Of a stretch of 64,000 nt of DNA, positions 40,832 to 61,348 are shown piece by piece; within the stretch, counting starts at the first letter, position 1; each line of letters begins with the position of its first letter. Origin of the DNA: Alcaligenaceae bacterium (GTDB lineage Bacteria; Pseudomonadota; Gammaproteobacteria; Burkholderiales; Burkholderiaceae_B); assembly GCA_044508625.1 (NCBI GenBank), contig JBIQHJ010000003.1, positions 2,104 to 66,103 on the forward strand, written 5' to 3'. The notes under the pieces were generated by a model. It did no database searches. It saw only the letters and a list, made by a program, of their open reading frames with translations, and was not told the DNA's origin. Both the position numbers and the translations under genes were made by a program.

Positions 40832-40954
40832 GGATCCTTGCGGACCCGAATTGACCCGCCTTAACGAAATCCCATCTCGGGGTAGGTGGGACATTTATCT
40901 CCTGGTAGAACCACGTCACATCCAGTGACATTCTTGGACATCAAGGAGATAAAC

Positions 40955-43215: not shown

Positions 43216-43590
43216 TCAGCCTCTGGTCGTCGGCTGGATCAGGCTTTCCGCCGGAATGCCGAGCTTTTCGTGCAGTTTGCGGATCATGGGCAGGGTCAGT
43301 GCGCGCTTGCGATTCAAGACCTCATAGACGCGGTTGCGCCGTCCGATCATGGGTTCGAGATCCTTGGCACTGAGGCCTCCTTGCTCCATCCTGTATTTGA
43401 TTGCTTCGATCGGATCCGGCAGGCCGATGGGATGGTGCTTCGCCTCGTAGGCCTGAACCAAGGTCGAAAGAACGTCCAGGCGATCACCATCCGAGGACCC
43501 CGGCAACGGATCCTGGTCCACGAGGCGGGAAATTTCCTGCAGTGCAGCCTCGTAGTCAGCCTCGCTGCGGATGGGACGGATTTCCATCAT
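43216..43590 (-). CDS. higA: HigA-type HTH antitoxin (intact)
   Basis: IRPIRSEADYEAAL, RLDVLSTLVQAYE, PDPIEAIKYRMEQ and VYEVLNRKRALTLPMIRKLH. Confidence 0.88.
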   Translation of the reverse strand: MMEIRPIRSEADYEAALQEISRLVDQDPLPGSSDGDRLDVLSTLVQAYEAKHHPIGLPDPIEAIKYRMEQGGLSAKDLEPMIGRRNRVYEVLNRKRALTLPMIRKLHEKLGIPAESLIQPTTRG

Positions 43591-43592
43591 GG

Positions 43593-43695
43593 CTACTCCA
43601 TTTCAACCGTGAGTGCGTCGATTCGGTCATATTCGGCATGGGTGCCGATGAATTTCACCCAGAATTGGTGTAGTACGGGCGGCGATGAGTCGCAT
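43593..43695 (-). pseudogene. higB: HigB toxin remnant (internal deletion and frameshift)
   Basis: N-terminal MRLIAART is joined out of frame to C-terminal FWVKFIGTHAEYDRIDALTVEME*. Only 103 nt, directly upstream of higA. Confidence 0.8.
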
Positions 43696-43772
43696 GGCCA
43701 TGCTAGTCCCATGTTGGGACTATTGCAATAAAGGGAGGGCTTAGAACTTTATGGCTTGAGATGGGTGGTTCA

Positions 43773-43929
43773 ATGGACTATAGTGGGCCGATACGCTTTC
43801 AGTGGGATCGGCTCGCGCCTGTTCATCGTGACTTATGTCCCGAGGCATGAGGCCATACGTATCATCTCGGCGCGCAAGGCCAATCAGCGAGAGGTCGCAT
43901 ATTATGAAAACAGTACATATGACCGTTGA
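43773..43929 (+). pseudogene. BrnT-like toxin remnant (internal deletion and frameshift)
   Basis: MDYSGPIRFQWD is joined out of frame to GSRLFIVTYVPRHEAIRIISARKANQREVAYYE. Only 157 nt. Confidence 0.78.
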
Positions 43930-44284
43930 TCCCGCCGATCCAGCGTTTTCGACGATCGGGCGCGTGGACGAGGCACGCCTGGATGCCACAACGGAAGATG
44001 ACATCGCTCGCCAGGCTGCCCTCGACGACGCTGCCGCCATACGAGATGCGGCCAGATACGCGCGGCGCGTGCGTCAGCGCCTGGGCTTGAGCCAGGCAGA
44101 GTTCTCGCAGCGGATCGATGTTTCTCTGCAGACCATCCGAAACTGGGAGCAAGGCAAGCGCCGCCCGACCGGCGCGGCAAAGGCATTGCTGAAGGTGCTG
44201 GACAAAGCCCCTGAAGCTGCCTTGGACGCCTTGCGAGGCAGCCAGGACGAGCCTGCGCAACATAGTGGAACTGGCCGCTCTTGA
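43904..44284 (+). CDS. XRE/HTH_3 antitoxin-like regulator (intact)
   Basis: RQRLGLSQAEFSQRIDVSLQTIRNWEQGKRRPTGAAKALL. Start overlaps the toxin remnant. Confidence 0.85.
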   Translation: MKTVHMTVDPADPAFSTIGRVDEARLDATTEDDIARQAALDDAAAIRDAARYARRVRQRLGLSQAEFSQRIDVSLQTIRNWEQGKRRPTGAAKALLKVLDKAPEAALDALRGSQDEPAQHSGTGRS

Positions 44285-44296
44285 GGGGTCCGGGGT

Positions 44297-44365
44297 CGCC
44301 GGGCGTCGCTTTTCGTAGTCGCCGGCCATGGCAATCGTGACGAGGTCGCCGCGTCTCAGGTCCAT
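44297..44365 (-). pseudogene. MazF/PemK toxin N-terminal remnant
   Basis: MDLRRGDLVTIAMAGDYEKRRPA matches the RRGDxVxxxxxGDxxKxRPA start of PemK/MazF. Similarity is lost afterwards. Confidence 0.72.
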
Positions 44366-44548
44366 TCATCACGGAAAGGATCGAGATCCTCGTCGAGCTC
44401 TTGCATGACGCCGTGCCTCGAGTTCAAAAGACGATCGGCGAGCTTGCCGGATCCGATCGCGGGCCAGCTCACGTAGAAACTCACCGAGCGATTTCCCCTC
44501 CCGTTCGGCAAGGTCGCTGAGCGCGGCCTTGAGGGCGGGGTCTAGCCC
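44356..44548 (-). pseudogene. Ribbon-helix-helix antitoxin remnant upstream of the mazF remnant
   Basis: LDPALKAALSDLAEREGKSLGEFLRELAR..EARRH, then a frameshift to VMQELDEDLDPFRDEWT*. No intact start found. Confidence 0.55.
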
Positions 44549-44602
44549 CGAAAGAAGACCCAGCGCACTGACGATCGTTTACAAGAAGAAAGCCTCACAC
44601 GC

Positions 44603-44632: not shown

Positions 44633-44685
44633 CGCGTTCACGCATTGAACATGCGCGATCGCGCTTGCTGACCGTGTCACAGCAC

Positions 44686-44697
44686 GGCGGTAGCGTG
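44686..44697 (+). promoter_or_regulatory. ops element (RfaH loading site, JUMPstart-like)
   Basis: GGCGGTAGCGTG, an exact match to the ops consensus, 21 nt before the first ORF of the polysaccharide cluster. Confidence 0.92.
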
Positions 44698-44718
44698 TTC
44701 GCTGGACTCATCCGCGTC

Positions 44719-45084
44719 ATGCCTTCCGATAGCTCTCTCTACGACGAAAACCACCTCAAGGTCCTGCGTCTGCTGGAATCCGATCCCAGCCTCAGCCAGC
44801 GCGAGCTGTCCGAGGCCCTGGGCGTGAGCCTGGGCAAGACCAACTACTGCATCCGCGCCCTGCTGGACAAGGGGCTGATCAAGATGCAGAACTTCCGCAA
44901 CAGCCAGAACAAGCTCGCCTACGCCTACCTGCTGACGCCCGCGGGGATCGCCGCCAAGGCCGAGCTCACGGCCAGTTTTCTGAGGATCAAGTTGCGTGAA
45001 TACGAGGCCCTGCGGCGCGAGATCGAGAAATTACGGCGTGAGATAAGAGAGATATCACGAGATAGGACATTAAATAATGAGTAG
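44719..45084 (+). CDS. MarR-family EPS-associated transcriptional regulator
   Basis: LSQRELSEALGVSLGKTNYCIRALLDKGLIKMQNFRNSQNKLAYAYLLTPAGI. Confidence 0.9.
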   Translation: MPSDSSLYDENHLKVLRLLESDPSLSQRELSEALGVSLGKTNYCIRALLDKGLIKMQNFRNSQNKLAYAYLLTPAGIAAKAELTASFLRIKLREYEALRREIEKLRREIREISRDRTLNNE

Positions 45085-45221: not shown

Positions 45222-46202
45222 ATGAAGTTTATAAAAATAAGCAGATTGTCCAATAAAAAAGGAATTTCGGATAATGTATTATATGCATTTATTTTTGTTT
45301 ATGGCGCGGCTGGGTTGTCGTTTTTGGCAACCTTATTAAGAGACTATTTCATAATCAGCCATGCAAACAACGCTTCTCAATTTTTCCAGTTGTTCTATGT
45401 CGCGTCGATGTCTGCTGGCTTTGCCGTGAATGCCTTAACCCTAGGAAAGCGCTTGCCGGTCAGCTATATCGCAATTTTAGCGGTTGTGTCTATTTGCATA
45501 TGTTTAATCCTGGTGCCCAAAGATCAGTATAATCTATCCTCAATTTCATGGGTTATCCTTATACAGTTTTTGTGGATAATAGGGGCGTTTTGGGCCCGCA
45601 TTGCGATAGAGAGGAACTTTTTCTTTCTCGGGCGAAGTAGGGAGACTGTAACCTCATTAGCCACAGTGCCTTTCATTGTAGCTGGCTTTACCACGCAGTC
45701 TTCATTCATATACGCGGTCATTATTGGGACCCTATTTTCACTCGTGGTATATAGGATGGCAATCAAATTAGGGCCCGAAAGCGAACATAATAAAAATAAT
45801 TCGGATTCAGAATCATCAGGAAGGGCAGACGGATATGTCAGGTTCATCGAAAATATTGCCTTATCGAATGTTGCGAGTTTCATAATAACTTGGTGGGCAT
45901 TGAAGAATACGGAGGCGAGTAGCACGGTATTTGGCATAGAATCCACGGTTGCGATTAGAGTCAGCTTATACGTATACCAGACCATAACAATAGGTGCGAT
46001 TGTGTTTGCGGTCAGAAGATATAAAAGCATAGGGACAGTGGCTAGCCGAAACATTGGAGCAGTTGCATTGGCTAGTGTTTTAGGAGGGGTTTTTCTTCCT
46101 CTAGAGGTATCAGTAGTCATTCTTCCTCTTGCTGCCGGCGTCGCTCATTACTCTCTTGTTATCTACCTTCAAAGGAATAGAGATCGCGGAGGCTATTTGT
46201 GA
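45222..46202 (+). CDS. Polytopic membrane protein, putative Wzx/MOP-type flippase
   Basis: Alternating hydrophobic segments and first position in the glycan cluster. LLRDYFI is faintly MurJ-like. Short (326 aa) for the family. Confidence 0.45.
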   Translation: MKFIKISRLSNKKGISDNVLYAFIFVYGAAGLSFLATLLRDYFIISHANNASQFFQLFYVASMSAGFAVNALTLGKRLPVSYIAILAVVSICICLILVPKDQYNLSSISWVILIQFLWIIGAFWARIAIERNFFFLGRSRETVTSLATVPFIVAGFTTQSSFIYAVIIGTLFSLVVYRMAIKLGPESEHNKNNSDSESSGRADGYVRFIENIALSNVASFIITWWALKNTEASSTVFGIESTVAIRVSLYVYQTITIGAIVFAVRRYKSIGTVASRNIGAVALASVLGGVFLPLEVSVVILPLAAGVAHYSLVIYLQRNRDRGGYL

Positions 46203-47644
46203 GAGAAAAAGAAAACCAAAAGGATATGAATTTAATTTCCTTTGCGGCTATTTTTTCGTACATTTCGCTCTTCGCCGGGCAATTAACTACGGGAAGGTTA
46301 TCTACAATCGCACACTGGGTGCCATCCTTAGAGATAAGAATACTGGCGCTGATGATTGTTGGCTTTATTATTCTGTACGTCTGGGCTCGTATGGGAAATA
46401 AGTACAATAATTTTGGTAATGGCTTTGCGAAGGGTAGCTTAAAGATTCTTTCTATAATAATAATCAGCCAAGTAATTATTATACTTTTAGAGTTGGTCTC
46501 TCGAAAAGGGGAGGGCGACTATAGAATGATAAAGGAGATTATGGTCTCCATTATCCAAATGTCAGCCGTAACGATTCTAATATGTATGTGGGGAAAGGAT
46601 TATGTGCTTGCCCTCCTAAGGGTCGCTCTCGGGGCGGGTATTGTTACGAGCTTTTGGTTCTTTTTCCTGTATCGAGGCCCCGAATCTGGCCCGATAATGA
46701 GCGTCTTTACAGTTTATCGGATTGCTCTGTTTGCGGGATTCTCTGGATTATATATATTCTTCGAAGAAAGATATAATAAGAAGCAACTATTAATTCTAGG
46801 GTCGGCAGTACTCTGCTTTTCGTCCTCATTTTCAACCTTATCAAAGGCGGCATTACTTGGCGGAGTTTTCTCTATAGCGATGATGATAGCCGTATACTAT
46901 CTATGGATAGATAAAAAAAGAGCATTAACTACTCTCCTGGTGCTAATTTCCGCGGTAGCGATATTTTGGATAGGTCGTGGCCAAACGTTTGAAGCGCGCG
47001 TTGCGGAAGGGGTATTTGGTGTAGGTTATGATCCACTTAGTACGATGGAGGCTGTTGAGCCGCCTCCTAAGGGAGAGCATGAGACCGACAAAGATATGTT
47101 AGAGAGGGAGATTGCTTTTGATGCCCAAAAAAGTCTCGCCAAGCAAATCGCGTGTTCTTTTACTCGGACTCCATGTGATCCCAGCCCTACGTATACCGAA
47201 GAGGTTTTTACCAAGCTCTTATTTAGAAATTATATCGTATTGCCGGATTATTCTGTCAGACTTAGGCTTGCTTATCGAGCTTTAGAGGGTTTTTCAAACC
47301 ACCCATATGTAGGTAATGGATTTGGTAAGTACAAATTAACCGCAATTAATTTATATACTAATTTACCAGAAGTGTATCACTACCCACATAATTTCATCTT
47401 GGAGCTCCTGTATTCAGTCGGGGTGCTTGGAACCGCACCTATAATGATTGTGTTGTTGATTTGTATCGGGCTCGTTATAAGGAAACCGCGAGGGCTTCAC
47501 GCTGCTGCACCGATAGTGGGCGCTGCGGCCGCAGGAATAGTCGGGGCGTTATTCGGTGGAGATTACTCAGATTTTAGGATTGTATGGATATATCTTATTC
47601 TCGCTTACGCCGTATATTTGATGAATCAAGCTAACGTCGAGTAA
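46199..47644 (+). CDS. O-antigen ligase/polymerase (Wzy_C) family membrane protein
   Basis: Multi-TM protein with TLSKAALL, RLRLAYRAL..HPYVGNGFG and YPHNFILELLYSVGVLG. GTG start. Confidence 0.75.
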   Translation: MREKENQKDMNLISFAAIFSYISLFAGQLTTGRLSTIAHWVPSLEIRILALMIVGFIILYVWARMGNKYNNFGNGFAKGSLKILSIIIISQVIIILLELVSRKGEGDYRMIKEIMVSIIQMSAVTILICMWGKDYVLALLRVALGAGIVTSFWFFFLYRGPESGPIMSVFTVYRIALFAGFSGLYIFFEERYNKKQLLILGSAVLCFSSSFSTLSKAALLGGVFSIAMMIAVYYLWIDKKRALTTLLVLISAVAIFWIGRGQTFEARVAEGVFGVGYDPLSTMEAVEPPPKGEHETDKDMLEREIAFDAQKSLAKQIACSFTRTPCDPSPTYTEEVFTKLLFRNYIVLPDYSVRLRLAYRALEGFSNHPYVGNGFGKYKLTAINLYTNLPEVYHYPHNFILELLYSVGVLGTAPIMIVLLICIGLVIRKPRGLHAAAPIVGAAAAGIVGALFGGDYSDFRIVWIYLILAYAVYLMNQANVE

Positions 47645-47711: not shown

Positions 47712-49034
47712 ATGAGAATAGAAAATAAGGTCCCTGGATTTGAGTATGCTCCTACATTGGGGTGGCTAATATTTATAGTGTGTCCAGCTATTTATCAGTA
47801 TGGCTATCTTGATCCGGGATTTCGCGCGGAGTATATGCTAATAATAATAATCATATGTATCGGATTCCTCGTGGCTGATTGGTATTCTCTCAGGGTAATT
47901 AAATCAAATCAAGGGAGTAAGTATGTGGATAGTATATCAAGATATTCGATGTACTCAATAGTCGCCATATCTGTCTTGGTGATGCTTTTTAACTTATATC
48001 AAATTAGAGATCTGCCGTTGCTTTCGTTGTTCACAGATAAGAATGTTGATCTATCGGATCAGAGGTATCTGGCAACGAAGGGACTAGAGGTTCCTGTAGT
48101 CATAAAATATCTATACAATTGGAGTTTGGTTGTTTTTGCTCCATTGGCTATCGTGCTAGGCGTTCGTTCTCAAAGAGCCTGGCTGAGCATCGCGCTTATA
48201 GTATTCTCTGGTTTTTATGCGGTGGCGACGAGCGCTAAGTTTCCGTTAGCTCAATTACTCGTTTTGGTAATTGCGGGATTGATTTCTACAGCGACCGTTC
48301 AAGATAGAACAAGATGGTATAGGACGTTCATCTATGTGGGGGTGCTATCAATTTTTTCGTTATTTATTGCTTCCCAGTCGTTCAGATCAAATCTGGTTGA
48401 AAATGATGAAATTATCCGAGAAGGCAGATTGGGATTATTGCAAAGGTTTTCTTCGGACGACCCTCGTTCAACATTGACTCTTGGTGATATGCAGAGATTG
48501 ATCCCAGAAAGCAAGAACTCTCTGGGTTTCATCGAGAAAACAGAAAAAATTATTAATTATTTGTTCTATCGATCGTTCTTGACTCCCGTGGATGTTTCTA
48601 TTCGGTGGTATGAGTATTATAAGACACAGGCGGCGCCGGAAGGTCTGATGAGTATATTTCTTTCTCGTGGCGGGTCGGCCGATTCCCCGAGCCGCATTGT
48701 TGGGTTATGGGCATATCGAGATAGGTTTCCAGATCACTATAAGGCGTATATTAACGCATACGCCTCTTTTGATGCCGACGCGTATGCCAGATATGGGTTA
48801 GTTGGGGTTTTTCTTGCAACATTATTATTGCTCGCAATAAGATTGATTGGAGCAATCTGCTTCAGGTGTACACTCTTTAGTAGGTCATTGTATGGCTTGC
48901 TAGTTGGTGGATTGTTTTTGCTTCCCGCGTCTGCTTCCATTCAGGCAATGTTAGGTGCTCAGGGCCTTATGGTGGTGATTGTACTAATGATGATCAATTT
49001 GGCTTTTTCAGTCTTAAGAATACGGAAGACGTAA
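47712..49034 (+). CDS. Putative Wzy repeat-unit polymerase
   Basis: AT-rich multi-TM protein with SAKFP and YRSFLTP..RWYEYY loop motifs, inside the glycan cluster. Confidence 0.6.
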   Translation: MRIENKVPGFEYAPTLGWLIFIVCPAIYQYGYLDPGFRAEYMLIIIIICIGFLVADWYSLRVIKSNQGSKYVDSISRYSMYSIVAISVLVMLFNLYQIRDLPLLSLFTDKNVDLSDQRYLATKGLEVPVVIKYLYNWSLVVFAPLAIVLGVRSQRAWLSIALIVFSGFYAVATSAKFPLAQLLVLVIAGLISTATVQDRTRWYRTFIYVGVLSIFSLFIASQSFRSNLVENDEIIREGRLGLLQRFSSDDPRSTLTLGDMQRLIPESKNSLGFIEKTEKIINYLFYRSFLTPVDVSIRWYEYYKTQAAPEGLMSIFLSRGGSADSPSRIVGLWAYRDRFPDHYKAYINAYASFDADAYARYGLVGVFLATLLLLAIRLIGAICFRCTLFSRSLYGLLVGGLFLLPASASIQAMLGAQGLMVVIVLMMINLAFSVLRIRKT

Positions 49035-49143: not shown

Positions 49144-50415
49144 ATGAAGAAAATATGGATTTTTCAGACCGGGGAACCACTTCATATTGATGGAGAGGGA
49201 TCTCGAGGTATGCGATGTATGAACTTGGCGAATAAGTTGGTCCAAGATGGGCACAAGGTTACCATATGGAGTTCTGATTTTTACCATCAGGAGAAGCGTC
49301 ATCGGCGGGGAGAATATACCGAGATAGTAACCTCTGATAATTTAGAGATCCGCCTTGTCCCCAGTATGGGCTATTCCAGAAATATCGGCATTAAGCGACT
49401 TGTGGACCATGCGCAATTAGCCTTTAATCTGAGGAAGGCGCTGTTAAACGCCTCAGATGTGCCCGATGTCGCATTCATAGGGTATCCACCAATCGAATTT
49501 GCTTGGTATGCTATAAAATTTCTAAGGCAGAGAGGCGTTCCAACACTTCTGGATATCAAGGACAATTGGCCTGAGTTCTTTGTTACCCCATTTCCTCAAC
49601 GTGTGAAGTGGTTGGCTAGGTTGGCGCTTTTCCCATATTTTATCTTGGGTAAAGACGTTATGCGAAGTGCAGATGGAATTTGTTCGATGACGCCCAGTTT
49701 CTTAAATTGGGCAAGATCTTTCTCGGGGCGGAATCCTGATTCTCTTGACGGGGTATTTCCGCTATCTCCACCAGAGCCTCTCGACTCTCCCTCGGATATT
49801 GAAAATGCAAGGCTGTGGTGGTCAGAAAAGGGTGTTCAGCCCAACGCGACGACCAAGTTTTTATTTGTGGGTAGCTTTTCTAAGGCATTTGACTTTGACA
49901 CTATCGCGCAAGCGGCTGATCGTTCTGCAAGGAAGGGCCACGACTGGCAGTTTATACTCTGCGGAGATGGCGGAGACGCTGAAAGCATTCGTCGATTATT
50001 TTATGGTATGAGTAATGTTGTCATGCCGGGGTGGGTCAATAGAGCACAAATTGATGCGGTTGCTCAGTTGGCAGTTGGAGGATTGGCGCCGTATAAGAAT
50101 ACGGATAATTTTATAAACAACATGCCAAACAAGGTGGTTGATTACCTCTCCTTGTCTTTGCCGATTATTACGCCTCTAAGGGGAGAGGTCTCATCGATGA
50201 TTTCGTCGAACTCGTCGGGTCTTTTATATAGGGAAGGAGATGTAGGAGATCTGTACGATAAATTATATTGGCTAGCAACAGATCAGTCCGCACAAGCCAT
50301 GATGGCAACTAATGCTCGCAAGGCCTATGATTCATTATTTCAGCATGATAAGGTCTATGGTGATCTAGTGGCACACCTCGTACGCATGGCGGATGGCGGC
50401 CATGGGCAACACTAA
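49144..50415 (+). CDS. Glycosyltransferase family 4
   Basis: IFQTGEPL, GHKVTIWSSDF, IKDNWPE, FVGSF and MPNKVVDYLSLSLPII (GT-B). Confidence 0.88.
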   Translation: MKKIWIFQTGEPLHIDGEGSRGMRCMNLANKLVQDGHKVTIWSSDFYHQEKRHRRGEYTEIVTSDNLEIRLVPSMGYSRNIGIKRLVDHAQLAFNLRKALLNASDVPDVAFIGYPPIEFAWYAIKFLRQRGVPTLLDIKDNWPEFFVTPFPQRVKWLARLALFPYFILGKDVMRSADGICSMTPSFLNWARSFSGRNPDSLDGVFPLSPPEPLDSPSDIENARLWWSEKGVQPNATTKFLFVGSFSKAFDFDTIAQAADRSARKGHDWQFILCGDGGDAESIRRLFYGMSNVVMPGWVNRAQIDAVAQLAVGGLAPYKNTDNFINNMPNKVVDYLSLSLPIITPLRGEVSSMISSNSSGLLYREGDVGDLYDKLYWLATDQSAQAMMATNARKAYDSLFQHDKVYGDLVAHLVRMADGGHGQH

Positions 50416-51220
50416 TCCAGATGGCGAGCCCTCTCAGGCAGATAAGCACATCGAGCGTGATCGCTATGATCGGCGCGCCAGCGCACAACTTGCTGGTCGG
50501 TTGGCGAATGACCCGCAGGGCTATGCTGATATTCCCGCAGCGCTGCGTGCTCCCTACTTGCATTATGCGGAGACTATCCTGGCACAGGCGCATGTGCGAG
50601 CCCGGGTATTAGAGATCGGTGCTGGGACGGGCGCGCATACCGGTTACCTACTCGAGCGGGGTGCCTGGGTTACCGCCACAGACATCTCTGCCGAATCGCT
50701 GCGCGTATTGCGTCAGCGGCATGAAAGCCCGGAAGCGACGCTGGATGTTTGCACAGCCGATATGGAGGCCATCCCGTTCTCCACAGCGAGTTTTGACATG
50801 GTCACTGCAGCTGGTTGCCTGAGTTATGGTGATACCCTCCGCGTGCTATCAGAGATCGAGCGCGTCCTGAGACCGGGTGGGGTGTTTGTGTGTGTGGACT
50901 CTCTGAACGATAATCCAGTTTACCGGTTTAATCGTTGGCTCCATTATCTGCGAGGAGGGCGTTCGAAATCGACTTTACGCCGGATGCCATCAACTCGGAC
51001 GCTGGATCTTTATTCTTCCCGTTTTGAGTCGGTTCAGGTGCGCTATTTTGGAGCGCTTACCTTTGCGTTGCCGCTATTGCGGCGCATCCTGCGTGAAGAC
51101 AAATGCGCTCGGCTACTTGATCGGTTCGATCACTTCGTGGGGGTGCGGCGATCCGCATTCAAGTTTGTAATGGTCGCTCGGAAATTCGGGCAGTCATATT
51201 CTGACGAGTTGAGGGATTGA
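50393..51220 (+). CDS. Class I SAM-dependent methyltransferase
   Basis: VLEIGAGTG, ATDIS, ADMEAIPF..FDMV and RVLRPGG. Confidence 0.88.
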   Translation: MAAMGNTNPDGEPSQADKHIERDRYDRRASAQLAGRLANDPQGYADIPAALRAPYLHYAETILAQAHVRARVLEIGAGTGAHTGYLLERGAWVTATDISAESLRVLRQRHESPEATLDVCTADMEAIPFSTASFDMVTAAGCLSYGDTLRVLSEIERVLRPGGVFVCVDSLNDNPVYRFNRWLHYLRGGRSKSTLRRMPSTRTLDLYSSRFESVQVRYFGALTFALPLLRRILREDKCARLLDRFDHFVGVRRSAFKFVMVARKFGQSYSDELRD

Positions 51221-51221
51221 G

Positions 51222-52280
51222 ATGATGGAACAAGAAGGGTTGCCTATCGGACTGGGTTCACTGGCCGAGCCCGAAGCGCATCATGGGCCTATAGCCTTGC
51301 GAGGCTACTTGGCTGAAGCACTTGAGGGATTCATGCATGGCATGTTGCGCATCCGCGTAGCTGAACAGACGCTTGCGGAAAAGCGTCGGGACGGTCTGAT
51401 TGGCGGGCCGGTGCATCTCGGGGTGGGACAGGAGGCGATTGCAGTTGGTGTATCGCATTCCCTGCGCAAAACCGACCGTGTGTTTGGTGCGCATCGATCA
51501 CACTCCCATGTGCTGGCCCTGGGTGCGAGCTTGCATGGTTTGTTTGCAGAAGTCTTGGGTAAGGACACTGGTTTATCGCGCGGTATGGGCGGATCAATGC
51601 ATTTATGGGACCAGAGGCATGGATTCTATGGCTCGGTTCCTATTGTCTCCGGGACTGTCTCGCTCGCAGTGGGGGCTGGCCTTGCGGCGCGCATGCAGGG
51701 TAGAGGCGACATTGGCGTGGCTTATCTAGGTGACGGTGCAATCGAGGAAGGCGTGGTACATGAGTCGTTGAATCTTGCCCGCATGCTCAAGGCACCGGTC
51801 CTGTTCGTAGTAGAAAACAATCTTTTTGCTAGCCATATGCATATTTCTTTACGCCAACCAGCAAATGCGACCGCACGTTTTGCTGCTGCGAATGATATTC
51901 CCTTCAAAATCGTGGATGGCAACGATGTCGCCGAGGTTGCAGAGGCCGCTAGCAACTTGGTGGCGCGTGCGCGTAGAGGTGAGGGACCGATGTTTTTAGA
52001 GGCTGTTACATATCGTTGGTATGGCCATGTAGATTGGCGCGATGATATAGATGTCGGAGTTGAGCGATCAGTGGAACATGTGGCGAACTGGAAGGCGCGT
52101 GACCCGGTCAAGCGGCTAGCGGATGCGATGGTCGCGCACGGCCAATGGAGCGAGGCACGTACTAAGGCTTTGCTGGAAACGCTGCGCGCTGAGGCCGCCA
52201 CTGCTTGGGATCAAGCGGTGGCTGATCCCTATCCCGATGCATGTCAACTGCTAGCCCGTGTCTTTGCTGCGAAGGACTGA
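51222..52280 (+). CDS. TPP-dependent dehydrogenase E1 alpha-like subunit
   Basis: HLGVGQEA, HRSH, GMGGSMH, and the TPP motif GDGA...ENN. Confidence 0.9.
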   Translation: MMEQEGLPIGLGSLAEPEAHHGPIALRGYLAEALEGFMHGMLRIRVAEQTLAEKRRDGLIGGPVHLGVGQEAIAVGVSHSLRKTDRVFGAHRSHSHVLALGASLHGLFAEVLGKDTGLSRGMGGSMHLWDQRHGFYGSVPIVSGTVSLAVGAGLAARMQGRGDIGVAYLGDGAIEEGVVHESLNLARMLKAPVLFVVENNLFASHMHISLRQPANATARFAAANDIPFKIVDGNDVAEVAEAASNLVARARRGEGPMFLEAVTYRWYGHVDWRDDIDVGVERSVEHVANWKARDPVKRLADAMVAHGQWSEARTKALLETLRAEAATAWDQAVADPYPDACQLLARVFAAKD

Positions 52281-52283
52281 GGA

Positions 52284-53273
52284 ATGAATCAGAGCAACCC
52301 ACTGAACTATGGCACGGCAATTTTGTCGGCTTTTGAGTATCTCCTGGAAAATCATCCAGAGGTTTTTGTTATCGGCCAAGGCTTGTGGAGCCCCTGGTAT
52401 GTGGGCAACTCGATGACGGATCTTGATAAGAAGTTCGGGGCCGCTCGGATCATCGATACGCCAGTATCAGAATCGGCTTGCACCGGTGCTGCAGTGGGCG
52501 CATCGCTGGCGGGGATGCGGCCAATCGTAGTCCATCCCCGCATGGATTTCATGCTCTATGCGATTGATGCGATCGTGAATCAAGCGGCGAAATGGTCTCA
52601 CATGGTGGGGGGGCAAGCGCATCCGTCGGTTACAATTCGGGCAATCATCAATCGCGGCGGGGAGCAAGGCGCCCAGCACTCGCAGGCATTGCATGCTTGG
52701 TTCGCCCATATACCTGGTCTTCGAGTGGTGATGCCTGCCACTGTGGCTGATGCTCGTGACCTGCTGATCGCAGCGGTGCTATGCGAGGATCCAGTCATGT
52801 ATATCGATGATCGATGGCTCTATGACCAAGTCGATGAGTTGCCACCGATTGCTCCAGTTGATCTGCGCGAGCAAGGTCCTCGCCGACTGATTGAGGGGCA
52901 TGATATTACGCTGGTGGCGTCGAGTTATTCCACGCGCCTAGCTTGCGAGGCGAGCCGTGAACTGGCTGCTGAAGGCCTCTCCGTGGAGGTCATCGATCTA
53001 CGGGTACTGAATCCTTTTGATCCTTCCGTGATCGTCGATTCGGTGATGAAGACTGGTCGGCTATTGGTCGTGGACGGCGGATGGAAGGTCTGCGGTATGG
53101 GAGCAGAGGTAATCACCTCTGTGGTAGAACGCACCGGGCCGTCAGCGTTGCGCCAGGCGCCTGCGAGAATCTCCCTGCCGGCGGCGCCGGCACCGACTTC
53201 GCGCCCCTTGGAAAAGCTCTATTATCCAGATACGATAGCGGTCGCCCAGCGGGTTCGTGAGATGCTGTCCTAG
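52284..53273 (+). CDS. TPP-dependent dehydrogenase E1 beta-like subunit
   Basis: RIIDTPVSE, GMRPIV, GAQHSQ, DPVMYID and VEVIDLR. Confidence 0.9.
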   Translation: MNQSNPLNYGTAILSAFEYLLENHPEVFVIGQGLWSPWYVGNSMTDLDKKFGAARIIDTPVSESACTGAAVGASLAGMRPIVVHPRMDFMLYAIDAIVNQAAKWSHMVGGQAHPSVTIRAIINRGGEQGAQHSQALHAWFAHIPGLRVVMPATVADARDLLIAAVLCEDPVMYIDDRWLYDQVDELPPIAPVDLREQGPRRLIEGHDITLVASSYSTRLACEASRELAAEGLSVEVIDLRVLNPFDPSVIVDSVMKTGRLLVVDGGWKVCGMGAEVITSVVERTGPSALRQAPARISLPAAPAPTSRPLEKLYYPDTIAVAQRVREMLS

Positions 53274-53334
53274 TTCGGTTTTTTGCTTGGCGCTGGATTA
53301 CAATCCTACTTTTATCAAAAACGGCAGATTTGAA

Positions 53335-54450
53335 ATGACACAGACTAGAAAGGTGCCTTTTTTCGACTATCCCCGGGCGTTCCTGGATGACAAGGACGAT
53401 CTGATGCGAATCGTCGGGGATGTTGGCCAACGGGGTGCCTTCATCATGCAGCAGGACCTACGAGACTTCGAAGCCGCACTGGCGGCTTATACAGGCGCGC
53501 AGTTTGCCATCGGTGTTGGCAATGCTACCGACGGCTTGGAGTTCTCTTGGATGGCGCTTGGGTTGCGACCAGGGGATGAGGTGATCTGTAGCTCGCACAC
53601 CATGCTAGCTACGGCTTCGGCGATCAAAACGGCGGGAGGGGAACCTGTGCCTGTGGAGATCGGGCCAGACAACTTGATCGATCCGGATGCCATCGAGGCG
53701 GCGATTACCCCGCGCACAGTGGGCATCATGCCCACACAGCTAAATGGGCGCACCTGCGATATGGATAGAATCATGGGAATTGCGCAGCGCCACGGCTTTT
53801 TCGTTGTTGAGGACGCTGCGCAAGCGCTCGGCTCCCGGTTCAAGGGTCGGCACGCAGGGACGTTTGGAAATGCCGCCGCTATCAGTTTCTTTCCGGCGAA
53901 GGTCTTGGGGTGCCTAGGTGATGGGGGAGGGGTGATCACTAGTAGCCCTGCCGTCTATGACAAGGTCTACCAGTTGCATGACCACGGACGTAATCCTGAC
54001 GGTGAGATCATGAGTTGGGGGCGTAACAGCCGGCTTGATAACTTACAGGCGGCAATCCTGAATCATCGGCTCAAAGGGTATAGCGCCGTCATAGAACGTC
54101 GCCGCGCTGTTGCCGCGCAATATCAGGCGCAGTTGGGCGATCTGGATGAGTTGCAACTTCCCCCTGCTCCTGATGCCGATTCGGATCATTTCGATGTCTA
54201 TCAGAACTACGAGTTGCAGGCTGATCGTCGGGACGACCTAAGGGCCTATTTGGCAGAACAAGGCATCGGAACTCTGATTCAATGGGGTGGTAAGGCTGTA
54301 CACCAATGGGAGCGGCTGGGCTTTGTGTGTAAGCTGCCCAAGGTCGAACGCTTCTTCGAGCGTTGCATCATGCTGCCAATGAATATGTTTATAACGGATG
54401 ACAACGTGTCCTATGTTTGCGGTGCGATTCGCCACTTTTATCGCAAGTAG
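53335..54450 (+). CDS. DegT/DnrJ/EryC1/StrS PLP-dependent sugar aminotransferase
   Basis: GNATDGL, VVEDAAQA, SFFPAKVLGCLGDGG (PLP Lys) and NSRLDNLQAA. Confidence 0.9.
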   Translation: MTQTRKVPFFDYPRAFLDDKDDLMRIVGDVGQRGAFIMQQDLRDFEAALAAYTGAQFAIGVGNATDGLEFSWMALGLRPGDEVICSSHTMLATASAIKTAGGEPVPVEIGPDNLIDPDAIEAAITPRTVGIMPTQLNGRTCDMDRIMGIAQRHGFFVVEDAAQALGSRFKGRHAGTFGNAAAISFFPAKVLGCLGDGGGVITSSPAVYDKVYQLHDHGRNPDGEIMSWGRNSRLDNLQAAILNHRLKGYSAVIERRRAVAAQYQAQLGDLDELQLPPAPDADSDHFDVYQNYELQADRRDDLRAYLAEQGIGTLIQWGGKAVHQWERLGFVCKLPKVERFFERCIMLPMNMFITDDNVSYVCGAIRHFYRK

Positions 54451-55209: not shown

Positions 55210-56496
55210 TTAGAATCCGTCCGTAGCACTCGTAGCTCTCTCCCGCAAGCCTGTCCAGAAGATGATCAGCGAGACAGTGAAAAACATCACACCACTGTTT
55301 CGACCCAGTATTACATGGGTCAGGCCATAGCAGGCAAATGAGGTAACGAGTACCGCACCGGCCAGAGCAAATGAGCGTTGTTCAGGATGATCCTCTCGTA
55401 TATGTCGAAAGAAACGTGTGAAGCTAAAGAGAAACAGCCATAGCAATGCAAGCAAGCCGCTAATTCCTTGTGAAATCCAAATCTCTAGGTAGTTGTTATG
55501 TACATTTGCAAGATCTGCAACCTCGGGAGCAATTTCTTGGCGTGAAACCTGGGTTTCGAGTTGTGCTTGATATTCCTTTTGCGACCATCCGGTTAGCGGT
55601 CTTTCCGCGATATTGATTAGAGCGGCACGCCAAGCTTCTAATCGCTCTCCAACGGATGATTGAAATACATCGTGTTGAGTGATATAAGAATCAAATTGTT
55701 TTATAGCGAGTCTATACCTGTTCTGGGCGGTGCCATTGAATTGGATGGTCAACAGTATGGCAGCTAGGACACAAAGGAATAGTAGCACGTGTGCGCGCAA
55801 TGATAGTTTCCTTCCTAGTGAGAGAATAAAAAGAATGGCGACAGGACCAAGGGCGATCCAGGATCCGCGTGCCCCGGATTTTAGGCTGGCGTAAGATCCA
55901 GCCACAAATCCTATATAAACTATGGCTTGCCAGAGACGGCGGTATTTGGATTGGGCATTAGCCCACGGGAGGCCTGCCAAGCTCATGAGGCCGATTGATA
56001 ATGCAATAGCGCCGAATGGAATTGCGCTCGTCACAAAACCTGTTGCGCGATCGAATAATATTCCCGAGGCTGGATCGATGGCAAAGTGTGTTTGCCAGAA
56101 ACTGAGCCCCGCCGCCAGGACCGCGCCAGTAGTTAGGCCTGCCCAGATAGAGGACGGGGGAATAGGAAATGTACGTAGCAAGAATATGATGGGGATAGCC
56201 AATAGGTATCGACTGGGTTGATCAAGTAGGTTGTTCCCATCACCATGATAGAGTGTCGCTGCAGCAGCGATCAGGAATAGAATAAGGAATAGCGTAGCAA
56301 GACGCTTGTCAACAGGTACGGTATTAGTGAGTAATACGTGTCGCTGTGAGAGCATGAAAGCTGCTAGGCTGGACAATAGGAGTATAGCAGGACCATACGA
56401 ATAGCCAGAAGGGATAGCCAGAGTGAGCGCAAAAAAAAGAAACGCGGCTATCGAAGGGATGTTTTTGTAAAGTAATCGGTTAAGATCAAGACTCAT
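55210..56496 (-). CDS. O-antigen ligase (WaaL/Wzy_C) family protein, low-GC paralog of 38528-39841, antisense to the operon
   Basis: GFVTSAIPFG, SGARGSW, RLEAW..ERPLTGW, HNNYLEIWISQG and VILGRNSGVMFF. Confidence 0.85.
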   Translation of the reverse strand: MSLDLNRLLYKNIPSIAAFLFFALTLAIPSGYSYGPAILLLSSLAAFMLSQRHVLLTNTVPVDKRLATLFLILFLIAAAATLYHGDGNNLLDQPSRYLLAIPIIFLLRTFPIPPSSIWAGLTTGAVLAAGLSFWQTHFAIDPASGILFDRATGFVTSAIPFGAIALSIGLMSLAGLPWANAQSKYRRLWQAIVYIGFVAGSYASLKSGARGSWIALGPVAILFILSLGRKLSLRAHVLLFLCVLAAILLTIQFNGTAQNRYRLAIKQFDSYITQHDVFQSSVGERLEAWRAALINIAERPLTGWSQKEYQAQLETQVSRQEIAPEVADLANVHNNYLEIWISQGISGLLALLWLFLFSFTRFFRHIREDHPEQRSFALAGAVLVTSFACYGLTHVILGRNSGVMFFTVSLIIFWTGLRERATSATDGF

Positions 56497-56571: not shown

Positions 56572-58404
56572 ATGATGGTAGACGCTAAGGCTCGTGCCCT
56601 GTTGGTTTTCGCCTTCGATCTCTGTGCAGTTGCGCTTGCATGGATAGGGGCTTTCTTGATCCGTTTCAATTTCTATTGGCCCTATGGTTACCTGGATGGG
56701 ATGGTTTTGGGGCTAGTGCTATTGCTGCTAGTACAAGCTGTCACCTGCAAGGTTGCTGGTCTATATAGGGGTATGTGGTCATATGCGAGCCTCCCAGATC
56801 TAAGGTTGGTAGTGCGGGCGGTTTTTGTCTCCTTTTGCGCAGTTCTACTGCTGGCAATATTGGCCAGAGATCATGTTGTAGTACCTAGATCCGTCATTTT
56901 ACTGTATCCGATCCTCCTGCTGCTCATCATGGGGGGCAGCCGAGCGGCGTGGCGGATGTGGCATGAACGTAAGTTCTATCACCATTCTGGTCGCTATGGC
57001 AAGCCGGTCGTGGTCGTAGGAGCAGGGACTGCGGGGGCCATGCTGGTACGTGAACTGGCTCGTAGTGCTGAATGGCGTGTTGTCGCGCTCCTGGATGATG
57101 ATCGACATAAGCTAGGCTTGACGTTATCAGGCTGTCGTGTAGAGGGAACGACGGAGGATATCGCCACTGTTCTCCAGCAGCATGGCGCGAAGCACGTCAT
57201 TTTGGCGATGCCATCCGCCCCTGCGGAGGTTCTGCAGCGCGTAACGCAACTAGCAACTGGTATTGGCGCTTCTTTATTTACGGTTCCTGGCTTGGCCGAA
57301 CTGATGAGCGGCCGTGTTGCCATCAACATGATGCGGCCGGTCCGTATTGAGGATCTGTTGGGGCGTGAATCAGTACGAATCGACAACGAGAACGTGCGAA
57401 CCATGCTGATGGGTAAGCGTGTCTTGGTGACTGGGGCGGGCGGGTCTATCGGTAGTGAACTCTGCCGTCAACTGTCGCGCTTCGCGCCTGCCTGTATCGT
57501 TCTGTTGGAATCCAGTGAGTTTGCTCTGTATATGATCGAGCAGTGGTTCGGCGAGCATCGCCCCGAGGTGTCTATCGTACGTCTGGCGGGCGATGTAAAG
57601 GATGAGGCCCGTATGGCCCAGGTATTCGCAGAGCATTGCCCACAGGTGGTGTTTCACGCAGCAGCCTATAAGCATGTCCCGCTGATGGAAGTGAATAATG
57701 CCTGGCAGGCTGTACGTAACAATATCGCTGGCACGCTGGTAGTGGCGCGAGCCGCGCGCGACGCCGGAGTCGAGCGGTTTGTGCTAATTTCCACTGATAA
57801 GGCCGTTAACCCAACCAATGTGATGGGAGCTACGAAACGCGTGGCTGAAATGGTCTGTGAGGTTATGCAGAACGGTCCGAGCACGACGCGCTTCCATATC
57901 GTGCGTTTCGGTAACGTGCTTGGCAGTACTGGTAGCGTTATCCCTAAGTTCCAATCCCAGATCGCCCATGGCGGCCCTGTTACTGTTACCCATCCTGAGA
58001 TCAATCGCTATTTCATGTCAATTCCGGAGGCGGCTCAACTTGTTCTGCAGGCGGCAGCTATGGGGCAAGGTGGCGAGATTTTCGTCCTGGATATGGGTGA
58101 GCCGGTCAAGATCGTGGACCTAGCCCGCAATATGATTCGCCTGTCGGGCTTCACCGAGGATGAGATCCGTATCGAGTTCACCGGCCTACGGCCCGGGGAA
58201 AAGCTATATGAGGAATTGCTGGCGGACGCAGAGGAGACCCTGCCGACGCCGCACGAAAAGCTTCGCATCGCGCGGCCTCGCAGTGTGCCCGAGGGCCTGT
58301 ACGAGGAGGTGCTCGTCTGGGTGATGTCGGAGGCGCCGCTGGACGACGAGGCGGTCAGGGCGGGGCTGAAACGGTGGGTGCCGGAGTATGAGCCGAGGAG
58401 ATGA
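56572..58404 (+). CDS. wbpM: Membrane-bound UDP-GlcNAc 4,6-dehydratase (WbpM/WlbL/PglF/CapD family)
   Basis: N-terminal TMs, GAGTAG, TGAGGSIGSELCRQ, HAAAYKHVP, STDKAVNP, RFGNVLGS and GLRPGEKL. Confidence 0.92.
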   Translation: MMVDAKARALLVFAFDLCAVALAWIGAFLIRFNFYWPYGYLDGMVLGLVLLLLVQAVTCKVAGLYRGMWSYASLPDLRLVVRAVFVSFCAVLLLAILARDHVVVPRSVILLYPILLLLIMGGSRAAWRMWHERKFYHHSGRYGKPVVVVGAGTAGAMLVRELARSAEWRVVALLDDDRHKLGLTLSGCRVEGTTEDIATVLQQHGAKHVILAMPSAPAEVLQRVTQLATGIGASLFTVPGLAELMSGRVAINMMRPVRIEDLLGRESVRIDNENVRTMLMGKRVLVTGAGGSIGSELCRQLSRFAPACIVLLESSEFALYMIEQWFGEHRPEVSIVRLAGDVKDEARMAQVFAEHCPQVVFHAAAYKHVPLMEVNNAWQAVRNNIAGTLVVARAARDAGVERFVLISTDKAVNPTNVMGATKRVAEMVCEVMQNGPSTTRFHIVRFGNVLGSTGSVIPKFQSQIAHGGPVTVTHPEINRYFMSIPEAAQLVLQAAAMGQGGEIFVLDMGEPVKIVDLARNMIRLSGFTEDEIRIEFTGLRPGEKLYEELLADAEETLPTPHEKLRIARPRSVPEGLYEEVLVWVMSEAPLDDEAVRAGLKRWVPEYEPRR

Positions 58405-59090: not shown

Positions 59091-59761
59091 TCATTGACGC
59101 CAAGCCGGCCTGTTGGTGCGTCCGTCGGGGGCGTCCCGCAGGATGTCGAATGCTCGGTCCGGCAAGTCGTGGCCTTGCAGCAAGCCGATTCCGGTCTGTA
59201 GTCTCGAGCGCCACCCCGGACCGCGGCCCTTCGCATCGTTCACGGCGGCAATCAGTTCGTCTTCTCGATCCCTGCACAGGACCGACAGCAGGGTGGCGGC
59301 CTGGAGGAGGTCTTTCTTGGCCTTGAGGCGCATTTCTCGCCGCCGCTCTCCTGTCACGATGAGCTTGTGGACCGCAAAACGGGCAGGGTTGGGGATGTTG
59401 ACCAGTACAGCCGTCGATCGGTCGAAGAGGACCGTTTGCTCTACGTCCTCCAGGGAATACTCCATGAATCGCAGCGGCTTCAGGGTGATTCCCAACTGAT
59501 CGGAAACAAAGGGTTCCCCGCCATCGTCGGTTTGAGGGGTCAGAAAGTCGATCTGGTAGTCGGGGTCCCGAGGATGTTGCCAGGTGCCGGTAGTGCCTGT
59601 GGCCGACAGCATGGGCACGAATCCGTCTTCGAGCGAGCCGATAGCGTCTTTCATCCGGACTCGCAGATTGGAAGGTAGAGCGATGCTGAGAATATCTGGC
59701 GATTGGTGCTCGCGATGGCGTCTCTGTACTGGTAGTACCAATACTTTCGGCCCTTGACCAT
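59091..59761 (-). pseudogene. GSU2403-like nucleotidyltransferase remnant
   Basis: MVKGRKYWYYQYRD is joined out of frame to ISIALP-like LSIALP..IDFLTP..LKPLRFMEYSLED..VNIPNPARFAVHKLIV..KAKKDLLQAATL. Confidence 0.72.
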
Positions 59762-59769
59762 CCGGGACG

Positions 59770-59805
59770 AGGTTATATGCATTAATTGTAACGCGCATAT
59801 AACCT
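59770..59805. repeat. 11-bp perfect inverted repeat upstream of the NTase remnant
   Basis: AGGTTATATGC-N14-GCATATAACCT. Confidence 0.85.
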
Positions 59806-59923
59806 GGATCAGTCAACAAGCGAGTTGGCCAATTTTGCAAGGTTTCCCCTCGCCTGGTCGTTGCGGGCTTTGGGGGCCAGGCGCCTTTGCCAGAGGCTCT
59901 TTCAGTGGCGCGGCAGGGGGGCA

Positions 59924-60718
59924 TCAGTCCGTCCCCAGGTCGCTCATGATCCGGCCGGCCTCGGCCTTCAGCAGTTCGACGAGGTCCTTGCGCCGCGTCA
60001 CGTCCATGCGGCCGTAGTTTGCCGCGATGCTCAGGGCGGCTATCGCCTGCTTGCCGAGATGGATGGCCACGCCGACGCCGTACATGCCTTTCAGGATATG
60101 CCCGGGGTTGAAGGCGTAGCCGCGTTCGCGCGTGTCGGCGATCGCCCGGCGCAGGGTGTCCTCGGTCACGTTCGGATAGGCTTTCAGGCGTCCGGCGTTG
60201 CGCCGCAGGATGTTCTCGACTTCCGGATCGGGCGCGGCCGCCAGCAGGGCGAGGCTGCCGGATCCGACGCCCAGTGGCCGGCGAGTGCCGACGTTCTGGG
60301 TCAGGACCCGCAGGGGAAAGGCGCCCTCCCGCCGGTCGATGCACACCGCGTCCGTGCCGCTGCGGATGGTGAGCATGACCGTATCGCCGGTCGCCGCCGC
60401 GAGGCGTTCCAGCGAGGGCTGGGTCAGGGCGCGGATGTCCAGCCGGTTGGCGGCGCGCGCGCCCATCGACAGGAATTCCAGGCCCAGGTAATAGACGCGG
60501 CTGCCTACCGCCTGCTCGACGAAACCCTCGTTCAGCAGGGATTTGAGCAGGCGGTGCAAGGTGCCTTTGCTCAGCCCGGTCTGCGCCTGCAGGTCGGAGA
60601 AGCGCATGCCCGAGGCGGAGGCGTTGAGCGAGAGGATGTGTAGGATCTCGAGCGCGCGCTTGACGCTCTGGACCGTGTCCGGGCCGTGCTTGGCGCTGTC
60701 CTGGGCGGATGGTGTCAT
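59924..60718 (-). CDS. IclR-family transcriptional regulator
   Basis: VQSVKRALEIL, GLSKGTLHRLL, YYLG, GDTVML and TRERGYA. Confidence 0.9.
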   Translation of the reverse strand: MTPSAQDSAKHGPDTVQSVKRALEILHILSLNASASGMRFSDLQAQTGLSKGTLHRLLKSLLNEGFVEQAVGSRVYYLGLEFLSMGARAANRLDIRALTQPSLERLAAATGDTVMLTIRSGTDAVCIDRREGAFPLRVLTQNVGTRRPLGVGSGSLALLAAAPDPEVENILRRNAGRLKAYPNVTEDTLRRAIADTRERGYAFNPGHILKGMYGVGVAIHLGKQAIAALSIAANYGRMDVTRRKDLVELLKAEAGRIMSDLGTD

Positions 60719-60865
60719 GCTGGTGTCGCGAAAGAGGCCTGGGTTCCGCGCGGCACGGCTGGGCGGCGCATCCGATCAGCATGTATAACCCATGGCGGCT
60801 GCGCTCGGCAATGCGCCAGGGGGTATCCGTGCGCCGGATGCCTGGCGGGTCTGGTCCGGCGGATA

Positions 60866-61348
60866 TCATTGGCCCGCCAGCAGGCGGGTGGCGGTGTAGG
60901 TCATGACGTCTTCGCCATGCTGGTTCCGCACGTCGATGCGCGAATCCACGACCGCCCGGTTCCCCGTGGAGGTCGGCCGTATCGAGGTGATCTCGATGGT
61001 CGCCTCTATGGTGTCGCCGACCTGCACGGGCTTGAGCATCTTCTTGTGGACCTCCAGGAGGGCGAGGCCGGTGCCCTGCACCATGCCCTGCAGGATGAAG
61101 CCCTCGATGAGGGCGTAGGTCAGGGCGCCGGGCACCGGGCGGCCGCGCATGGCCCCATGCTCGAAGGTCGAGTCGATGAAGATCGCCTCCAGCATCCCCG
61201 TGGCGCTGATGAAATTGACCAGGTCGGTCTCGGTGACCGTGCGCCTGAAGGTCCGGTAGACCTGGCCCACGGCGATGTCCTGCCAGTAGCATCCCTGGGC
61301 GATCCGTATGGCCTCGTTCGTCGGCATTGTGCGCTCCTCGTGGGGCAT
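60866..61348 (-). CDS. MaoC/hotdog-fold dehydratase family protein
   Basis: YWQDIAVGQ, RRTVTETDLVNF and KPVQVGDTI. The start may be 61327. Confidence 0.8.
   Translation of the reverse strand: MPHEERTMPTNEAIRIAQGCYWQDIAVGQVYRTFRRTVTETDLVNFISATGMLEAIFIDSTFEHGAMRGRPVPGALTYALIEGFILQGMVQGTGLALLEVHKKMLKPVQVGDTIEATIEITSIRPTSTGNRAVVDSRIDVRNQHGEDVMTYTATRLLAGQ

Follow-up and report, generated by a model that had tools for sequence, protein, structure and literature searches.

An E1-like gene pair in a surface glycan operon

We analyzed a 64,000-nucleotide stretch of contig JBIQHJ010000003.1 from an Alcaligenaceae bacterium (hereafter the window). It contains a low-GC island at ~44.4-59 kb, with a GC content of 41-58% compared to 68.4% for the 3.96 Mb host genome. 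At the center of this island, positions 50393-54450 hold four intact, closely packed open reading frames (ORFs) encoding a methyltransferase, the alpha and beta subunits (E1a and E1b) of a thiamin diphosphate (ThDP)-dependent E1 enzyme, and a DegT-family aminotransferase. Most likely, these genes are the core set that tailors a surface glycan's first (reducing-end) sugar, within a horizontally acquired pathway. The methyltransferase gene overlaps the upstream GT4 glycosyltransferase gene by 23 nt, the gaps from there through degT are 1 nt, 3 nt, and ~61 nt, and the gene for a small phosphoglycosyl transferase starts 9 nt after the DegT stop codon. A preliminary description had reported four tightly spaced genes in an ops-led operon, and our ORF calls and a single exact ops match agree with it, down to identical coordinates. 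It had also named WbpM as the operon's only keto-sugar-forming enzyme and had listed E2, E3, lipoyl, acyl carrier protein (ACP), N-acyltransferase, and 4-reductase genes as missing. Both statements held in domain searches of the island ORFs, which revealed no E2, E3, lipoyl, ACP, GNAT, hexapeptide acyltransferase, or 4-reductase gene and no second short-chain dehydrogenase/reductase; no dehydrogenase or ketoisomerase gene is encoded within the island.

The E1 pair retains the catalytic residues of its family. E1a has an intact GDG-X27-NN motif at 170-200 and His269, Glu63 and His132 of E1b align with the catalytic E59b and H128b, and the catalytic residues of the pair align with their human and G. 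stearothermophilus counterparts. By Pfam, the pair consists solely of E1_dh and transketolase-type domains rather than the acetolactate-synthase-like TPP_enzyme N/M/C architecture. The best family matches were pyruvate dehydrogenase (PDH)-type hidden Markov models (HMMs), yet both subunits scored below the PDH equivalog cut-offs (272.8 vs. 393.85 for alpha and 237.5 vs. 321 for beta). For the host's three E2-linked E1 alpha paralogues, NCBIfam models gave no informative type, as all three scored below the cut-offs. The outer active-site loop, which controls access of the second substrate, is invariant in glycan-clade E1 and has a sequence of its own (WYGHVDWRxDxDVGV).

The preliminary description had allowed for a distal E2/E3 partner that would make the pair a normal dehydrogenase. 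The host genome encodes seven E2 catalytic domains. Six of them have another E1_dh gene no more than 4 kb away, and the seventh comes after an AceE-type E1 in the gene order aceE-aceF-lpd. All seven thus adjoin other E1 genes, and no host E2 is left without an E1 partner of its own.

The DegT protein contains Asp160 and the catalytic lysine, Lys189. Its nearest relatives of solved structure were DesV (1e-68), WbpE, and QdtB, which are ring C3 aminotransferases. It was remote from PglE (1.7e-18) and PseC (7e-23), the known 4-aminotransferases for uridine diphosphate (UDP)-4-keto-6-deoxy-N-acetylhexosamine (HexNAc). KdnA was also among the structure matches (3.7e-35); this DegT-family member acts on an exocyclic carbonyl and is a precedent for such a substrate. 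The methyltransferase carries an LEIGAGTG motif, and its matches to solved structures were generic (around 1e-9), so that N-, O-, or C-methylation is not indicated. The small transferase has the DE and PRP motifs, with the di-N-acetylbacillosamine-1-phosphate transferase as its best solved relative (1.4e-22).

The features of the island are given in Table 1. The operon genes are co-oriented except for an antisense Wzy_C gene at 55210-56496, which sits between the small transferase and WbpM genes, separated by 3 nt from the transferase stop codon. In the closest relative (locus L003), the equivalent Wzy_C gene is downstream of WbpM on the operon strand. The ops-like element is located just upstream of the probable MarR_EPS start. 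Since 0.42 matches would be expected by chance, the one match observed is by itself weak evidence. Outside the island, the interval between the RfaH-like gene and the glycan island contains an autotransporter gene (40886-43198, plus strand; beta-domain 8.3e-32, PATR repeat), an HTH_3/MqsA-like antitoxin ORF (43835-44284, plus strand; surroundings 43216-44560) immediately precedes the island boundary, and a 733-aa ORF with a C-terminal NTP_transf_8 nucleotidyltransferase domain (59091-61292, minus strand; 8.1e-28) directly follows the island.

Table 1. Genes and sequence elements of the glycan island and the NusG/RfaH-like gene upstream of it. PLP, pyridoxal phosphate; SAM, S-adenosylmethionine; EPS, exopolysaccharide.
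Feature	Position	Strand	Evidence and remarks
NusG/RfaH-like gene	40211-40831		
MarR-family EPS-associated regulator	44665-45084	+	TIGR04176 MarR_EPS 1.3e-46, above cut-off; true start probably near 44719
ops-like element GGCGGTAGCGT	44686-44696	+	Single exact match in window, at operon head
Membrane protein, family unknown	45222-46202	+	No significant Pfam match; tblastn 36-46% identity in L003, L024, L028, L030
Wzy-like polymerase	46199-47644	+	Wzy_C 9.7e-8
Membrane protein, family unknown	47712-49034	+	No Pfam match; 31-36% identity matches in related cassettes
GT4 glycosyltransferase	49144-50415	+	Glycos_transf_1 and Glyco_trans_4_4; beside module in 46/81 loci
Class I SAM methyltransferase, type A	50393-51220	+	Methyltransf_11 2.7e-21
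ThDP-dependent E1 alpha, glycan-cassette clade	51222-52280	+	E1_dh 3.5e-60
E1 beta	52284-53273	+	Transket_pyr 5.8e-27, Transketolase_C 4.2e-26
DegT-family PLP aminotransferase	53335-54450	+	DegT_DnrJ_EryC1 1.9e-87; ORF open from GTG 53257, likely start ATG 53335
Small monotopic PglC-like phosphoglycosyl transferase, 248 aa	54460-55206	+	Bac_transf 1.5e-51
O-antigen ligase/polymerase family gene, antisense	55210-56496	-	Wzy_C 9e-20
WbpM/PglF-type membrane UDP-GlcNAc 4,6-dehydratase	56572-58404	+	Polysacc_synt_2 3.8e-118, CoA_binding_3; STDK motif at 407

Distribution and variants of the cassette

The preliminary description had regarded the E1 genes as an orphan pair. We found them instead to be one instance of a widespread, horizontally mobile cassette that consists of E1a-E1b with either DegT or an aldo-keto reductase, the small transferase, WbpM, and usually a methyltransferase. 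Thousands of E1 alpha homologues were identified at 65-78% identity, and three genomic contexts inspected together each showed this module. In a scan of one genome per species, for which the best 80 matches were listed, a close E1a relative was present in at least 577 species. The carriers among the matches listed were mostly aquatic and included Polaromonas, Rhodoferax, Gemmatimonadota, SAR86, Pelagibacteraceae, acI actinobacteria, and Prochlorococcus, the last represented by MIT 9302 and SS51, among others. Mapping the co-occurrence of E1ab, DegT, and WbpM, as the preliminary description had proposed, we observed E1b adjacent to E1a in 80 of 81 E1-centered loci, the small transferase in 71/81, a cassette-type DegT in 70/81, and WbpM within 5 kb in 39/81.

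For the converse comparison, DegT alone was used as the query against metagenome contigs, and a locus was called informative when at least 1.5 kb was available on both sides. This returned 80 loci at 61-79% identity, and E1a/E1b was present in all of the informative ones (33/33), which argues that this DegT subfamily is specific to E1. The 10 DegT loci without E1 all end within ~500 bp upstream of DegT. Neither E2 nor E3 was among the cassette genes tallied beside E1 in the 81 + 80 related loci, whose neighbors were not screened specifically for these components.

In the host genus, none of 24 other species sampled had the cassette, nor was it present in 16 other families of the host order, and the cassette E1 was found in only 2 of 400 genomes sampled across the host phylum. 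Searches of known plasmids (E <= 1e-60) and of E. coli genomes (distant blastn) produced no E1 match. Together with the drop in GC content, these absences point to horizontal acquisition of the cassette.

More divergent relatives were encountered in a 400-genome sample of the phylum of an acI carrier. Two E1a genes at 45% and 41% identity (loci L205, G672:C28, and L206, G756:C94) again lie in E1a-E1b-DegT-transferase modules, suggesting that the glycan-associated E1 clade reaches well beyond the 53-78% identity set analyzed here. The four further E1 matches examined in that sample (<=43% identity, E1β 35–38%) were canonical-looking, with no cassette genes adjoining. In two acI actinobacteria with streamlined genomes of 1.2-1.4 Mb (G440 and G441), the cassette E1a was the sole match to the window E1a at E <= 1e-20; apart from the glycan E1, these genomes apparently lack a heterotetrameric E1 alpha.

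The window E1a and 78 relatives formed one clade (support 99/98) in a maximum-likelihood tree, and the host's three E2-linked E1a paralogues fell far outside it, across a long branch. An aldo-keto reductase takes the place of DegT beside E1 in 10 loci; the identity of this reductase was confirmed by Pfam in seven loci without an adjacent DegT, and the remaining ones were assigned by tblastn. One of the two enzymes always adjoins E1, and most loci have either DegT or the reductase (66 vs. 10). They also swap on the E1 tree, where the reductase-type loci are scattered among those of DegT type (10 changes for 10 rows); one reductase locus (L023), for example, is the sister of a DegT locus (L026). 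This interleaving suggests that E1 catalyzes the same reaction whether an amine or an alcohol is made next, so that no amine is required, and that it leaves a carbonyl on which either enzyme can act. Such E1 chemistry is consistent with use of the WbpM-made C4 ketone, the only electrophile available, and the formation of a new ketone. In one reductase-type locus, from an Opitutia metagenome-assembled genome (MAG; L056, 6259-7889), a formyltransferase (Formyl_trans_N, C) and a PIG-L deacetylase are encoded directly upstream of E1a, suggesting that the 2-N-acetyl group is replaced in that lineage.

The methyltransferase and the small transferase changed along with the enzyme next to E1. Three methyltransferase families were recognized, with types A and B accompanying DegT in 44 loci and type C accompanying the reductase in five out of five loci and DegT in one (44:1 vs. 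0:5, Fisher p = 2.8e-6, with kinship of the loci not corrected for). Orthologues of the window's type A enzyme were found only in DegT-type cassettes. Likewise, the transferase is mostly ~241-250 aa in DegT-type loci (55-84% identity) and 205-217 aa in most reductase-type loci (42-48% identity), from which L021 and L056 depart. We take this covariation to suggest that both enzymes recognize the group installed by DegT or the reductase. A weak NodS-like signal in the type B methyltransferases of sister cassettes (7/20, best 8.5e-8) is suggestive only. In a Rhodocyclales MAG (L015, 6650-8020), a GNAT domain is joined to the N-terminus of the type A methyltransferase (456-aa ORF; 400 aa in the source annotation), and the fusion gene also occurs in L001 and L002. 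The fusion suggests that a free amine is available for acetylation; no GNAT domain of this kind is encoded in the window, whose sugar may stay cationic.

Proposed pathway and competing explanations

The pathway that we propose would begin with WbpM, which, judging from its family membership, would turn UDP-N-acetylglucosamine (UDP-GlcNAc) into UDP-2-acetamido-2,6-dideoxy-hexos-4-ulose. An E1 alpha2beta2 tetramer, operating without E2 or E3, would decarboxylate a 2-oxoacid, most likely pyruvate, on ThDP, and the hydroxyethyl-ThDP carbanion would attack the C4 carbonyl to produce a 4-C-acetyl, 4-hydroxy branched UDP-sugar. DegT would then transaminate the new exocyclic ketone (C7) to yield a 1-aminoethyl branch, while in the sister cassettes the aldo-keto reductase would give a 1-hydroxyethyl branch instead. 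The methyltransferase would methylate that new group, here probably the amine. Finally, the small phosphoglycosyl transferase would transfer the completed sugar phosphate to undecaprenyl phosphate, and the lipid-linked sugar would be extended by the GT4 enzyme, which probably adds the second sugar.

We estimate a probability of about one half for this reading as a whole, in which an E2-independent carboligase would add a pyruvate-derived acetyl group to C4, DegT would aminate it, and the methyltransferase would modify the product. The preliminary description had likewise placed an E1 pair without E2 on the WbpM keto-sugar, followed by amination or methylation; the comparative evidence is consistent with that idea and strengthens it, and the chemistry, including the donor, the attacked position, and the target of DegT, is what we infer from the sequences. 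The product is most likely a sugar that has not yet been described. More tentatively, and with some doubt, we suggest that such cassettes make C8, C4-branched 2-acetamido-2,6-dideoxyhexoses with a 1-aminoethyl branch (here probably N-methylated and cationic) or a 1-hydroxyethyl branch, that these may be the lipid-linked first residue of surface glycans in SAR11, SAR86, Prochlorococcus, acI, and Polaromonas, which rank among the most abundant bacteria of aquatic habitats, and that they would be built by an E2-free E1 and a DegT acting on an exocyclic ketone.

Several observations weigh against the proposed pathway. WbpM was within 5 kb of E1 in fewer than half of the loci, partly because of short contigs. 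The E1 pair retains both His residues that act in the reductive acylation of lipoamide, so their loss cannot serve as a sign of E2 independence, and the pair may have a lipoyl acceptor. Among proteins of solved structure, those closest to DegT aminate ring C3 and give no positive sign of an exocyclic target. The cassette reductase is AKR11-like (IolS, 3n2t) and Pau7, the reductase of the paulomycin pathway, is reported as AKR5I, which makes the two analogues and not orthologues. Our search of the full-text literature found no description of the cassette and turned up only antibiotic and yersiniose work. In addition, a recurrent variant with both the reductase and DegT on one E1 pair (transferase - aldo-keto reductase - E1a - E1b - DegT - WbpM) exists in Pelagibacteraceae (L043 and L045) and in marine metagenomes (L143, L146, L152, and L169), and a model with one new ketone covers this variant only if a branch point is assumed. 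Genes for a PIG-L deacetylase, an ATP-grasp enzyme, and a HAD hydrolase are also present upstream in L045.

The variant with both enzymes and the ring C3 specificity of DesV, WbpE, and QdtB are also the points in favor of a different division of labor, in which E1ab makes the branch but the branch ketone is left to the reductase in cassettes that have one, while DegT acts on a ring carbonyl or serves a parallel sugar. The window would in that case yield either two products, a 4-C-acetyl sugar and a separate amino sugar, or one branched sugar with different substituents. We consider this unlikely, since the ring carbonyl is gone after addition at C4 and the island encodes no dehydrogenase or ketoisomerase. 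The strict linkage of the DegT subfamily to E1, the mutual alternation of DegT and the reductase in most loci, and the switching of methyltransferase and transferase types along with them also argue against it.

The preliminary description had offered two possibilities for the pair, C-branching and acylation of the amino sugar without E2; our results favor the former. In the latter, DegT would make UDP-4-amino-4,6-dideoxy-HexNAc and E1ab would acylate the amine from acyl-ThDP, independently of E2 and of coenzyme A. The lack of an N-acyltransferase in the island and the conserved acyl-transfer His residues speak for this scheme. We nevertheless find it improbable: near-identical E1s serve reductase-type cassettes, which have no amine; hydroxyethyl-ThDP would need oxidation to acetyl-ThDP, and the cassette contains neither an oxidant nor a lipoyl carrier; DegT is remote from PglE and PseC; and the GNAT domain of L015 would be redundant if E1 acylated the amine.

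We give similarly little credence to other ThDP chemistry, such as an acetoin-dehydrogenase-like cleavage or rearrangement of the keto-sugar's alpha-hydroxyketone, a transketolase-like transfer from a ketose, or the synthesis of a small non-sugar substituent for later attachment to the glycan. An acyloin motif is present in the keto-sugar, the AHRSHSH motif of E1a resembles HRGHGH of the host's E2-linked paralogue C16, and the donor cannot be read from sequence. On the other hand, the close spacing of E1b, DegT, and transferase genes implies a product that remains a UDP-sugar and serves as a substrate for a PglC-like enzyme. There are three precedents for acyloin addition at C4, and we know of none for these alternative reactions in sugar pathways.

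Lastly, we rejected as highly improbable the reading of the pair as an ordinary 2-oxoacid or acetoin dehydrogenase E1 that uses a distal E2/E3 and lies in a glycan operon incidentally: although the full E1 fold, the catalytic residues, and the best-scoring PDH-type HMMs fit it, both scores are below the equivalog cut-offs, each of the seven genome E2s has an adjacent E1 of its own, a long branch separates the clade from the E2-linked paralogues, the pair occurs in glycan cassettes in 80/81 E1-centered and 33/33 informative DegT-centered loci across many phyla, and it is absent from all 24 congeners.

If the pathway with C4 branching by E1 and amination by DegT is correct, ThDP-dependent branching, known only from a few Streptomyces antibiotic sugars and yersiniose, would be a widespread and mobile means of surface diversification. 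Branched amino sugars, possibly cationic, would stand at the reducing end of O-antigen or capsule-like glycans in carriers that include Prochlorococcus, Pelagibacter, SAR86, and freshwater acI and Polaromonas lineages. Surface glycan islands in these aquatic groups are thought to drive phage and grazer interactions. The PDH E1 family would gain an E2-independent role and the DegT family an exocyclic-ketone substrate, and automatic annotations, which routinely call these genes subunits of pyruvate or acetoin dehydrogenase, would be corrected. The question could be answered with four soluble recombinant proteins and liquid chromatography-mass spectrometry.

Comparison with known systems

The overall layout resembles that of the PglF-PglE-PglD-PglC pathway for di-N-acetylbacillosamine and of WbpM-based FucNAc/QuiNAc4N pathways, in which a dehydratase and a PglC-like transferase likewise bracket the tailoring genes and a DegT-family enzyme is shared. 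Compared to these pathways, the window has no PglD-type acetyltransferase, an E1 pair and a methyltransferase are inserted, and its DegT is distant from PglE/PseC. The window pair shares its fold and ThDP motif, as well as one catalytic Glu and two catalytic His residues, with the heterotetrameric E1 components of PDH, branched-chain 2-oxoacid dehydrogenase, and acetoin dehydrogenase. It differs from them in having no E2/E3 partner, in its sub-cut-off scores, in its separate clade, and in its own WYGHVDWRxDxDVGV loop. Isolated E. coli PDH E1 is reported to catalyze carboligation (PMC7696235).

That a C4-branched 6-deoxy-HexNAc does occur in a Gram-negative O-antigen is known from shewanellose, a 2-acetamido-2,6-dideoxy-4-C-branched galactose of Shewanella putrefaciens A6, whose branch, unlike that of the proposed product, is joined through a CH2 carbon (PMC4052302). 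In our view, the CH2 linkage is suggestive of aldol-type and not of ThDP-type chemistry. The best 80 of the at least 577 genome matches to E1a did not include Shewanella, and we know of no gene linked to shewanellose.

YerE of Yersinia, an unrelated ThDP-dependent enzyme of yersiniose biosynthesis, adds an acetyl group from pyruvate at C4 of a nucleotide 4-keto sugar in vitro (PMC4753412). YerE resembles our proposal in placing a pyruvate-derived acetyl at C4 of a nucleotide 4-keto sugar bound for the O-antigen, and it differs from the window enzymes in being, as reported, a single-chain flavoprotein with a CDP-3,6-dideoxy substrate and no later amination.

The closest parallels come from antibiotic pathways of actinomycetes. 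For AviB1/AviB2 of avilamycin eurekanate, genetic evidence indicates that an E1-like pair attaches a pyruvate-derived C2 branch to C4 of a 4-keto deoxysugar; Plm8/9 (the same as Pau11/12) places a pyruvate-derived C2 branch at C4 of a 4-keto deoxysugar for paulomycose, a comparable E1-like branching pair has been reported for the kosinostatin pathway, and in the paulomycin pathway the aldo-keto reductase Pau7 reduces the acetyl branch (PMC4753412, PMC4802897). Compared by description, AviB1/B2 and Pau11/12 are, like the window genes, split E1 alpha/beta pairs without E2/E3 in a deoxysugar pathway. As proposed for the window, a 4,6-dehydratase provides their acceptor, a 4-keto-6-deoxyhexose linked to a nucleotide, and Pau7 acts later on the branch ketone, just as the reductase-type sister cassettes also have an aldo-keto reductase. 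The window system differs from these in that its host is Gram-negative and its product a surface glycan rather than an antibiotic. Its acceptor would be a UDP-HexNAc derivative, whereas theirs are dTDP-2,6- or 3,6-dideoxyhexoses, and its ketone would be aminated by a dedicated DegT and then probably methylated. In the window, moreover, the sugar would be loaded onto a lipid carrier by a co-evolving PglC-like transferase.

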